Below, piece by piece: positions 34,962 to 35,966 of a DNA stretch of 64,000 bases. The DNA is taken from positions 1,888,001-1,952,000 of the forward strand of contig OY729431.1 in assembly GCA_963422395.1 (NCBI GenBank), given 5' to 3'. The position numbers were made by a program, and so were the translations under genes. The stretch comes from Vicinamibacteria bacterium. GTDB taxonomy: Bacteria; Acidobacteriota; Vicinamibacteria; Marinacidobacterales; Marinacidobacteraceae. The notes under the pieces were generated by a model. It worked only from the letters and a program-made list of their open reading frames with translations. It did not search any database and was not told where the DNA came from. Positions within the stretch are counted from its first letter, which is position 1. Each line of letters begins with the position of its first letter.

Positions 34962-35966
34962 CTAGCAGCTGAGCGGTTCGGGGGCGGGGCGGAATGCCAG
35001 GTTCAGGTTGCACCTCGTAACCCCTCGGGACGAGCGGGATGCCCCGCCCCCGAACCGCCCGGCGCTCCGCGCCGCGAATCGCACTCCTGTCGCTCAGAAC
35101 CAGTCCCCCAGACTCGATCCGCGGTCAGACCGGATCGGGCGGCAGCGAGTCCGATTCGAAATCACCATGCTGTGAACGGGGGTGAACCCCCTTTCACACT
35201 TTCCCCCGCTGCGACGCTCCCGAAGCACCGCTTCGGTCGCAACCGGTGTTTTCCCGGCCGCGGGCGAGGCTCGCAGCTCTCTCGGGCGGGGCGGAATGCC
35301 AGGTTCAGGTTGCACCTCGTAACCCCGTGGGACGAGCGGGATGCCCCGCCCCCGAACCGCCCGGCGCTCCGCGCCGCGAATCGCACTCCTGCCGCTCAGA
35401 ACCAGTCCCCCAGACTCGATCCGCGGTCAGACCGGATCAGGCGGCAGCGAGTCCGATTCGAAATCACCATCCTGTGAACGGGGGTGAACCCCCTTTCACA
35501 CTTTCCCCCGCTGCGACGCGCCCGAAGCTCCGCTTCGGGCGCAACCGGTGTTTTCCCCGGCCGCGGCGAGGCTCGCAGCTCTCTCGGGCGGGGCGAATCC
35601 CAAGTTCAGGTTGCGCCTCGCAACCCCGTGGGACCAGCGAGACGCCCCGCCCCCGAACCGCCCGGCGCTCCGCGCCGCGAATCGCACTCCTGCCGCTCAG
35701 AACCAGTCCCCCAGACTCGATCCGCGGTCAGACCGGATCAGGCGGCAGCGAGTCCGATTCGAAATCACCATCCTGTGAACGGGGGTGAAACCCCTTTCAC
35801 ACTTTCCCCCACTGCGACGCTCCCGAAGCACCGCTTCGGTCGCAACCGGTGTTTTCCCCGGCCGCGGCGAGGCTCGCAGCTCTCTCGGGCGGGGCGAATC
35901 CCAAGTTCAGGTTGCGCCTCGCAACCCCGTGGGACCAGCGAGACGCCCCGCCCCCGAACCGCCCGG
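34962..35966. repeat. Tandem array of ~3.3 x 302-bp hairpin-rich unit
   Basis: Units start at 34982, 35284, 35586 and 35887 (periods 302/302/301). The array is preceded by CTAGCAG, like the dispersed elements. Confidence 0.95.

Follow-up and report, generated by a model that had tools for sequence, protein, structure and literature searches.

The gap between the divergent genes carA and rpsA on contig OY729431.1 of a Vicinamibacteria bacterium is filled by a tandem array of units about 300 nucleotides (nt) long, each of which contains several hairpins. The array lies in a 64,000-nt stretch (contig positions 1,888,001 to 1,952,000), which was analysed as a whole and is referred to here as the window. 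A preliminary description had proposed that selection acts on the secondary structure of the unit, and that it might be an uncharacterised noncoding RNA (ncRNA) or a unit similar to repetitive extragenic palindromic (REP) elements, amplified in tandem. The locus thus raises the question of what the unit is, whether its hairpins are maintained, and whether it would act as RNA or as DNA. Comparison with other genomes indicates that the array is a locally amplified member of a family not described before, made up of five-hairpin elements of about 270–300 nt that occur in many places per genome.

A family of five-hairpin elements

A species-representative genome collection was scanned with a hairpin motif in which the loop and one stem position were left free. 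The scan returned 45 stretches, 41 of which were homologous well beyond the motif itself. All 41 came from metagenome-assembled genomes (MAGs) of Acidobacteriota/Vicinamibacteria, 11 genomes in total, and represented 39 distinct loci, since three stretches overlapped one region. The other four stretches (two from Oscillospiraceae, one from Bacillota and one from Celerinatantimonas) had no wider homology and were taken as chance matches. Two genomes carried nine loci each, counting only copies with the exact motif, and none of the family stretches was near-identical to the window. To date, family members are known only from MAGs of Vicinamibacteria-type Acidobacteriota. (To judge by their names, several of the MAGs with related loci may be sponge-derived bins.)

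The family unit is about 270 nt long and has a fixed order of five hairpins (P1 to P5), with a C-rich tract between P4 and P5; this order is kept in all full units of the array and in a second, diverged copy in the window (copy 2; see below). P1 is a stem of about 20 base pairs (bp; median of the basal helix, 20 bp) with a freely variable sequence and a variable tip of about 45 nt. P2 is a 6-bp hairpin, and P3 a long, interrupted stem followed by a U-rich linker. P4 is a near-invariant 11-bp hairpin with five G-C pairs (G5/C5), which precedes the C-rich tract, and P5 is a GC-rich hairpin of the intrinsic-terminator type, followed by a T run.

The window copies were recognised by models built entirely from other genomes. 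An nhmmer profile from 35 non-window copies matched units 1–3 of the array (E = 1.5e-27, 1e-24 and 1.9e-22, respectively) and copy 2 (E = 3.1e-26), and nothing else in the 64 kb. A covariance model was then built from 27 non-window copies and used in cmsearch with the filters off. It scored 69.0 bits for unit 1 (35058–35237), 73.3 bits for unit 2 (35360–35541) and 61.6 bits for unit 3 (35661–35840), with copy 2 as the top match in the window at 89.2 bits; the units and copy 2 covered the full model, positions 1–162. Further copies were sought in the window with blastn, nhmmer at maximum sensitivity and cmsearch without filters, and only the array and copy 2 were found.

The preliminary description had suggested that the copies be folded together with RNAalifold and searched for covariation. 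This was done on an alignment of 39 sequences, comprising 35 from other genomes and the window copies. The consensus contains 53 pairs, of which 31 show changes on both sides that keep the pairing. In the alignment, 94.8% of the paired cells can pair, compared to 84.4 ± 0.4% in 500 shuffles, and the covariation score is 0.275, compared to 0.100 in the shuffles, none of which reached the observed value. When the pairing partners were slid by 1–3 columns, the score dropped to 0.040–0.078. The shuffle control ignores relatedness between the sequences; the robustness of the covariation comes from the slid control and from the variety of pair types within columns. Two-sided changes are found in 12 of 15 pairs in P1, 8 of 9 in P5 and 5 of 6 at the base of P3. 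These substitution patterns indicate that the P1, P2, P3 and P5 stems are maintained by compensatory substitutions, and that the secondary structure of the element is under selection.

A second kind of constraint emerged from six syntenic loci in which recA, a tRNA-Phe gene and the element follow each other. In every pair of these loci, the identity of P2–P3 (0.77–1.00) was higher than that of the recA third codon positions (0.66–0.93), which indicates that the core of about 110 nt from P2 to P4 evolves more slowly than the third positions of recA. The P1 tip, in contrast, was only 0.22–0.39 identical between groups of these orthologues, and the P1 stems differed yet stayed paired. Since the P1 groups do not track recA similarity, P1 seems to be exchanged between copies, giving a mosaic like that of the units in the window.

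Searches of databases and literature gave no known counterpart, in keeping with the preliminary idea of an uncharacterised unit. With Rfam 15, the whole window had a single match at the gathering threshold, an RNase P RNA far from the array; the best matches to the array reached 14–23 bits, below thresholds of 50–90. All 4227 models, among them those for 6S, Ms1 and ribozymes, at E ≤ 10 gave no family match, only sub-threshold noise, in the array and copy 2 regions, and a search of 15 homologous loci at E ≤ 0.1 returned only tRNAs and sub-threshold noise. A plasmid collection, searched by blastn in distant mode with one unit and copy 2 as queries, yielded no match. Nor does the unit correspond to an IS end. 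A full-text literature search found no description of such an element, and no noncoding RNA or repeat family for Vicinamibacteria; the accessible part of one preprint (10.64898/2026.10.21.760802) makes no mention of Acidobacteria. Two Acidobacteria-specific RNA motifs, Acido-1 (RF01686) and Acido-Lenti-1 (RF01687), are listed as candidate ncRNAs of unknown function in the sections available of an earlier survey (PMC2864571). They resemble the present family in being restricted to Acidobacteria, but neither Rfam model matches the array, copy 2 or the 15 homologous loci. With this family, a bacterial class represented almost exclusively by metagenome bins gains a new, well-supported structured element whose covariation is strong.

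The array in the carA–rpsA gap and copy 2

Tandem Repeats Finder called the array at 34982–35966, with a period of 301 nt, 3.3 copies, 96% matches and a score of 1772. This is by far the strongest of ten tandem-repeat rows in the window, the other nine being short. The result bears out the 302-bp, 3.3-copy array described earlier, for which a start at 34962 is a fair outer limit, as the full P1 of unit 1 begins at about 34968. By alignment, the units measure 302, 302 and 301 nt, and an 80-nt partial fourth unit follows (Table 1). The five stems that had been named are all present. The outer stem motif GGGCGGGGC..GCCCCGCCC occurs four times, against 0.00 expected in shuffles, and the GTGAAC..TTTCAC hairpin three times in the array and once elsewhere in the window. 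A single unit folds better than shuffled sequences on both strands (z = −4.6 for the plus and −4.8 for the minus strand).

Within the window, P1 is of full length in unit 1 (19 bp) and in copy 2 (20 bp) only; units 2–4 retain just the distal 9–12 bp. The unit 1 arms, at 34968–34990 and 35041–35063, are 23 nt each and 91% complementary. P5 of unit 2 is a perfect 11-bp stem (35518–35528 with 35532–35542), and P4 of unit 3 is weakened by a single C>A change. The terminator-like feature of P5 is also present in units 2 and 3, and terminator-like sites were called at 35233–35246 and 35836–35849. Where the partial unit 4 ends, unique sequence begins and runs to the promoter-like site of rpsA. A 12-nt inverted repeat, 83% complementary (35208–35219 with 35266–35277 in unit 1), flanks the terminator hairpin and T run in each array unit, and could form an alternative outer helix.

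Two open reading frames (ORFs) of 180 and 233 aa cross the array. Their G+C content at third codon positions (GC3) is 0.62–0.66, compared to 0.80–0.83 for the adjacent genes, and neither ORF matches a Pfam family. In addition, the unit length is not divisible by 3. All of this supports the earlier view that the array contains no credible ORF. The family explains long spurious ORFs in gaps of this kind.

Table 1. Positions of the features discussed. L numbers denote family loci in other genomes; all other positions are in the window.
Feature	Position	Strand	Remarks
carA	33792..34946	−	Left flank, divergent from array; Pfam GATase 2e-42, CPSase_sm_chain 1.4e-41
Unit 1	34968..35283	+	Sole unit with complete P1; then P2 to P5, then 32-nt tail
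Unit 2	35284..35585	+	P1 5' arm shortened to distal 9–12 bp; P1 helix 12 bp
Unit 3	35586..35886	+	301 nt; truncated P1 of the 3+4 variant; P1 helix 12 bp
Partial unit 4	35887..35966	+	Truncated P1 only; stops at first P2 bases; window-derived profile hidden Markov model E = 4.8e-20
P4 hairpin	35171..35198 (unit 1), 35473–35500, 35774–35801	+	Followed by C-rich tract
P5 of unit 1	35220..35252	+	Terminator-like hairpin 35220–35226 with 35230–35236; short T run 35249–35252 (4 T)
Promoter-like site for rpsA	35989..36018	+	TTGACA, 18 nt, TAGTAT; 10 of 12 matches; downstream of array, outside repeat
rpsA	36061..38040	+	Right flank, co-oriented with array; Pfam S1 4.6e-87, six stretches
Copy 2, single diverged paralogue	11446..11720 (about)	−	blastn 75–88% identity in blocks; alignment
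GC-rich 12-bp hairpin with T-rich tail	11763..11792	+	Just 5' of copy 2, in the orientation of copy 2
Promoter-like site upstream of copy 2	11814..11841	−	TGGACA, 16 nt, AAAAAT; 9 of 12 matches; consensus match only
Extra ~85-nt module	L012:2080–2280 (−), L040, L001:1740–1800, L036, L007:2430–2520		Between P2 and P3
Second hairpin repeat array	L013:2091–2960	+	10 copies, 87-nt period
Second hairpin repeat array	L011:1520–1920	−	5 copies, 89 nt
Second hairpin repeat array	L005:2090–2650	+	3–4 copies, ~136 nt
RNase P RNA, bacterial class A	8446–8816	+	304 bits; only window Rfam match at gathering threshold
IS5-like transposase	319–1301	+	Two overlapping ORFs, DUF772 then DDE_Tnp_1; only transposase in ORFs scanned
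Ankyrin-repeat protein	1462–3159	−	565 aa, almost entirely ankyrin repeats
IcmF-type fusion	38517–41822	+	B12-binding, MeaB GTPase and methylmalonyl-CoA-mutase; 1101 aa; directly after rpsA
Defence/addiction-type gene cluster	48533–53443		Two Schlafen AlbA_2 ORFs, one with RecG-C-like ATPase domain
Gp49-like toxin and helix-turn-helix (HTH) antidote	50830–51462		Within defence/addiction-type cluster
PIN-domain protein	53006–53443		Within defence/addiction-type cluster

The units differ from each other in a mosaic pattern, as had been noted before. In P1, units 1+2 differ from 3+4 at 8 columns of the unit alignment; in the middle region, unit 1 differs from 2+3; and in the last hairpin, 1+3 differ from 2. 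The further claim that these differences are compensatory did not survive inspection: the quoted changes are one-sided and leave the partner base as it was. In the GGTTGC..G(T/C)AACC stem, a G.T pair becomes G-C through a T>C change, and a pre-existing C gains a pairing partner through an A>G change. Two T>G changes in unit 2 likewise act from one side: each mends a mismatch, with the opposite base unaltered. With only four copies at 96% identity, the array alone cannot show selection, although the changes agree with pairing. The proposal of selection on structure is therefore upheld by the 35 foreign homologues and the one paralogue, but not by the unit differences from which it had been drawn.

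The same differences bear on whether the copy number of the array is an assembly artefact, produced either by false expansion of a single element or by collapse of a longer array. Short-read assembly copes poorly with 300-bp tandem repeats that are 96% identical. However, artefactual copies would be identical, whereas here about 25 positions distinguish the units in a mosaic fashion, together with one indel; similar tandem copies also occur in multi-megabase contigs of three other genomes. We regard an artefact as very improbable. The family does mark sites of recurrent tandem amplification and assembly difficulty.

Copy 2 was first met through the most striking hairpin of the array, as a fourth match at 11517–11544 on the minus strand. 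This hairpin is its P4; the P1 arms lie at 11608–11633 and 11670–11695 and form a 20-bp helix, P3 spans 11557–11596, and P5 comes next and is followed by a run of seven T at 11460–11466. Relative to the array, about 45 nt are missing at the tip of the long middle stem, and three stems stay paired via changes on both sides. These two-sided changes are the first real sign of selection on pairing. Copy 2 is antisense to both of its neighbours, being divergent from a ComEA-like gene and convergent with an M23 peptidase gene. A promoter-like site is located 65 nt upstream of its P1, and the GC-rich hairpin at its 5' end is possibly a terminator for plus-strand transcripts that cross copy 2 antisense. 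A layout of tgt, antisense elements, an opposite-facing terminator-like hairpin and yajC is also seen in two other loci, L038 and L004.

Because the repeat fills the carA–rpsA gap and is co-oriented with rpsA, and because its single-stranded linkers are pyrimidine-rich, we considered whether it is a cis-regulatory leader, involved either in S1 autoregulation of rpsA or in pyrimidine control of carA. However, the promoter-like site of rpsA is downstream of the array, none of the 60 scanned ORFs that flank the 39 family loci has an S1 or CPSase domain, and the paralogue in the window is found between the M23 peptidase and ComEA-like genes. A leader function is hardly credible on these grounds, and the setting next to a ribosomal-protein promoter, to which the preliminary description had drawn attention, looks incidental.

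Gene context, terminator strand and a trailer reading

The homologues have a distinctive gene context. The element lies directly downstream of a tRNA gene in 18 of the 39 loci (tRNA identities Phe, His, Leu, Val and Pro-GGG), and the two are co-oriented in all 18. The distance from the tRNA end to P4 is 161–178 nt in 14 of these loci; it rises to 254 nt in two copies enlarged by an extra module, and falls to 81 and 98 nt in two that have lost P1. Only 2–7 nt separate the tRNA end from P1, leaving no room for a promoter. The arrangement is syntenic across genomes, with recA–tRNA-Phe–element in six MAGs and rdgB–tRNAs–element, facing a methyltransferase gene, in four. Other copies follow a co-oriented protein gene, beginning immediately behind its stop codon. 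Overall, the gene on the 5' side has the orientation of the element in 30 of the 39 loci and the opposite one in 6, with no call in 3; a place behind a co-oriented tRNA or protein gene is thus the rule in the family, though not without exceptions. The gene-context screen was a crude GC3 filter that missed some genes, so that these counts are approximate; furthermore, orthologous loci are not independent, and when counted as distinct contexts, with the two window loci included, the ratio is about 16 to 7.

The terminator is equally directional. A run of at least 4 T follows P5 in 25 of the 35 non-window copies, while none of the 39 copies has an A run in front of P5, as would be required for termination on the antisense strand. 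The distribution of these tracts indicates that the element carries a strand-specific intrinsic terminator.

One tRNA-Leu-linked element is accompanied by a large serine recombinase gene (L020:2–1840, plus strand), 91 nt past the element and convergent with it. At L005, the orthologous locus, the place of the recombinase gene is taken by hairpin-repeat arrays. A mobile element may have integrated there beside the tRNA gene and element.

With moderate confidence, and on the basis of sequence comparison, we read the family as a new lineage-specific transcribed trailer that comprises a processing stem, a conserved core and a terminator. Transcription would proceed from the strand with the U tract, mostly as read-through from the upstream tRNA or protein gene, and the element would have no promoter of its own. 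The P1 duplex of about 20 bp, the kind of substrate needed by a double-strand-specific RNase, would serve as a processing or insulating stem. P5 would end the transcript, leaving either a stable structured 3' trailer or a released core RNA of about 170 nt, and the invariant P4 hairpin with the C-rich tract would be a likely recognition site for a protein or RNA partner. The fixed placement a few bases behind five tRNA genes is unusual, and suggests a hypothesis on the processing of tRNA-operon 3' ends and on termination in Acidobacteriota.

Such a trailer has a close precedent in the tRNA 3' external-transcribed-spacer (3'ETS) RNAs, exemplified by 3'ETS-leuZ in E. coli. In 18 of 39 loci, the element likewise extends over precisely the stretch that separates the 3' end of the tRNA from the operon terminator; its release by tRNA processing is predicted. 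It differs in that one homologous structured sequence is found behind five different tRNA genes as well as behind protein genes, and also in tandem, and in that the window copies are not tRNA-linked.

A variant of the trailer reading, which we put forward only tentatively, is that the element is a promoter-less, self-terminating RNA cassette that rides on upstream transcription, with a preference for tRNA operons, and from which RNase cleavage of P1 would free a trans-acting RNA of about 170 nt. As part of the same tentative proposal, P4 and the C-rich tract might titrate an RNA-binding protein or pair with G-rich ribosome-binding sites. If so, tandem arrays would be a way to raise the dose of the RNA.

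An increased dose of a trans-acting RNA would also result if the array were a battery of independent small-RNA genes, each unit having its own promoter and terminator. Each unit is indeed closed by a terminator-like hairpin, the core sequence is conserved, and copy 2 combines its promoter-like site with a terminator that ends in seven T. However, a scan for sigma-70-type promoters on both strands of 34800–36200 found only the rpsA site and none in any unit or before unit 1, the U tracts of the array units are short, and the tRNA-linked homologues have only the 2–7 nt mentioned above in front of P1. Independent genes are thus quite unlikely. (A hairpin module that precedes some copies was compared by eye with the sigma-54 and extracytoplasmic-function (ECF) promoter consensus, and fitted neither.)

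Amplification, related repeats and other features of the window

Tandem copies are not confined to the window: they also occur in L007, L008, L025, L029 and L038, and parts of the element are duplicated separately, P1–P2 in L030 and P1–P4 in L029. The junction between units in the window, L007, L008 and L025 lies inside the P1 5' arm, 22–33 nt past the T run, while copies in L029 are fused head to tail at a microhomology of 4 nt. The window array both starts and finishes with P1. This fits an unequal exchange, or slippage, in which P1 hairpins served as anchors. The array would have been formed in that way, through unequal recombination or slippage in replication, and gene conversion between units would have followed the amplification; the mosaic had been ascribed to exchange between units in the preliminary description. 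Most simply, the array is a recombinational amplification of one family member, possibly without a function of its own.

A second hairpin repeat, with two GC-rich stem-loops per unit, forms tandem arrays of its own directly behind the terminators of some elements (Table 1). Single copies are present after or before many other elements, with 51 matches in 21 of the 39 loci; there are none in the window.

Some copies have an extra GC-rich module of about 85 nt between P2 and P3, whose pattern was matched five times in four loci. In L007, an IS1595-family transposase gene (2555–3532, plus strand; DDE_Tnp_IS1595 at 2.4e-33 and a zinc ribbon) splits the element copy in which it lies, at the 5' base of P3; inspection by eye showed short inverted ends.

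Several observations weigh against a trailer. The promoter scan of the array region was negative, units 2–4 have a shortened P1, and just four T follow P5. There is no tRNA gene in the window, and neither window copy is behind a co-oriented tRNA or protein gene; both loci are divergent from their 5' neighbour, and the trailer layout was therefore rejected for the window copies. Copy 2 and the tgt–yajC copies in L038 and L004 lie antisense between two genes that run in the same direction, and a terminator-like hairpin that faces the opposite way stands at their 5' end. Both the conserved sequence and the duplication units run 22–33 nt beyond the U tract; together with the 87–89-nt arrays of the second repeat, this sequence past the terminator points to dynamics at the DNA level. 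In P4, the part of the family with the most conserved sequence, 9 of 11 pairs are invariant among 38 distinct sequences, an invariance that is partly due to the search pattern; the hairpin is kept in four further copies that were found via flanking homology, not by the pattern. Finally, a classical structured RNA should show an excess of G.U over A.C, whereas 32 G.U and 49 A.C cells were counted, giving no support for the sense strand.

In view of these points, a further possibility has to be considered, namely that the family is an interspersed repeat acting as DNA, of the type of REP, REPIN or the bacterial interspersed mosaic element (BIME). The hairpins would act as single-stranded DNA or cruciforms, recognised by a transposase, gyrase or a nucleoid protein, while copies would spread and multiply selfishly or neutrally and transcripts would be incidental. 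P1 alone resembles two inverted arms of about 20 nt around a variable spacer of about 45 nt. The lack of a G.U excess, the presence of some copies in either orientation relative to operons, the exchange of P1 independently of recA similarity, the separate duplication of modules, the neighbouring tandem arrays of the second hairpin unit (up to 10 copies) and the module inserted between P2 and P3 are all consistent with such a repeat. However, the T tract is strictly confined to one strand, and tRNA genes are without exception co-oriented with the element, at a fixed spacing. Selfish repeats would not usually contain a 110-nt core that, at orthologous sites, is conserved better than the third positions of recA; the P1 arms differ widely within one genome, with no master-copy population, and there is no Y1 transposase domain among the window ORFs scanned. 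We hold a DNA-level repeat to be less likely than a transcribed trailer, and a function in RNA is favoured by the strand-specific U tract and the tRNA co-orientation, with the missing G.U excess counting against it. If the DNA-level reading were true, the family would represent a BIME-like mosaic repeat system outside the proteobacteria.

The REP, REPIN and BIME sequences of proteobacteria are GC-rich extragenic hairpins that are present in many copies per genome, often after gene ends, with arms that are kept complementary; their modules are combined in mosaics, and units are amplified in tandem. The present family shares the multi-copy GC-rich hairpins with complementary arms, the frequent placement behind genes, the mosaic modules and the tandem amplification. 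Unlike these sequences, it is 270–300 nt long and has five distinct hairpins in a fixed order, a conserved core of about 110 nt, its own intrinsic terminator and a strong linkage to tRNA 3' ends, and its P1 arms differ strongly within a genome. While P1 alone fits paired inverted palindromes (arms of about 20 nt and a spacer of 36–50 nt), the conserved unit is the whole 270–300-nt series. No RAYT-type (Y1) gene was present among the ORFs scanned in the window.

ERIC/IRU, pneumococcal BOX and Neisseria Correia elements are structured intergenic repeats of 100–300 nt that are co-transcribed with their neighbours. BOX is modular with a variable internal copy number, Correia elements can terminate transcription, and the long hairpins can be cut by a double-strand-specific RNase. 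The family resembles them as a structured, modular intergenic repeat with long hairpins, but has a directional terminator, a strong orientation bias and a placement a few bases after tRNA genes. In addition, no terminal inverted repeats linking the element ends were found in the 6 copies examined, where all inverted repeats were local hairpins (P1, P3, P4 and P5). In this respect, these copies differ from miniature inverted-repeat transposable elements like Correia or ERIC.

Two other candidates were rejected for the array. A CRISPR or other repeat–spacer array does not fit, as the whole 301/302-nt unit is repeated at 96% identity with no unique segment, which also confirms the earlier remark that there are no unique spacers. 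For integron attC sites, the bases of the P1 arms were inspected and lack the core motifs, the flanking genes are carA and rpsA, and no integrase domain is present in the ORFs scanned.

Other features of the window are listed in Table 1. The IS5-like transposase is about 34 kb away from the array, in agreement with the earlier statement that no transposase is adjacent; its split into two ORFs may reflect a frameshift or a programmed frameshift. A gene for an ankyrin-repeat protein follows on the opposite strand. An IcmF-type fusion gene lies on the far side of rpsA, and a defence/addiction-type cluster with Schlafen-type ORFs, a toxin–antidote pair and a PIN-domain protein is located further along the window.

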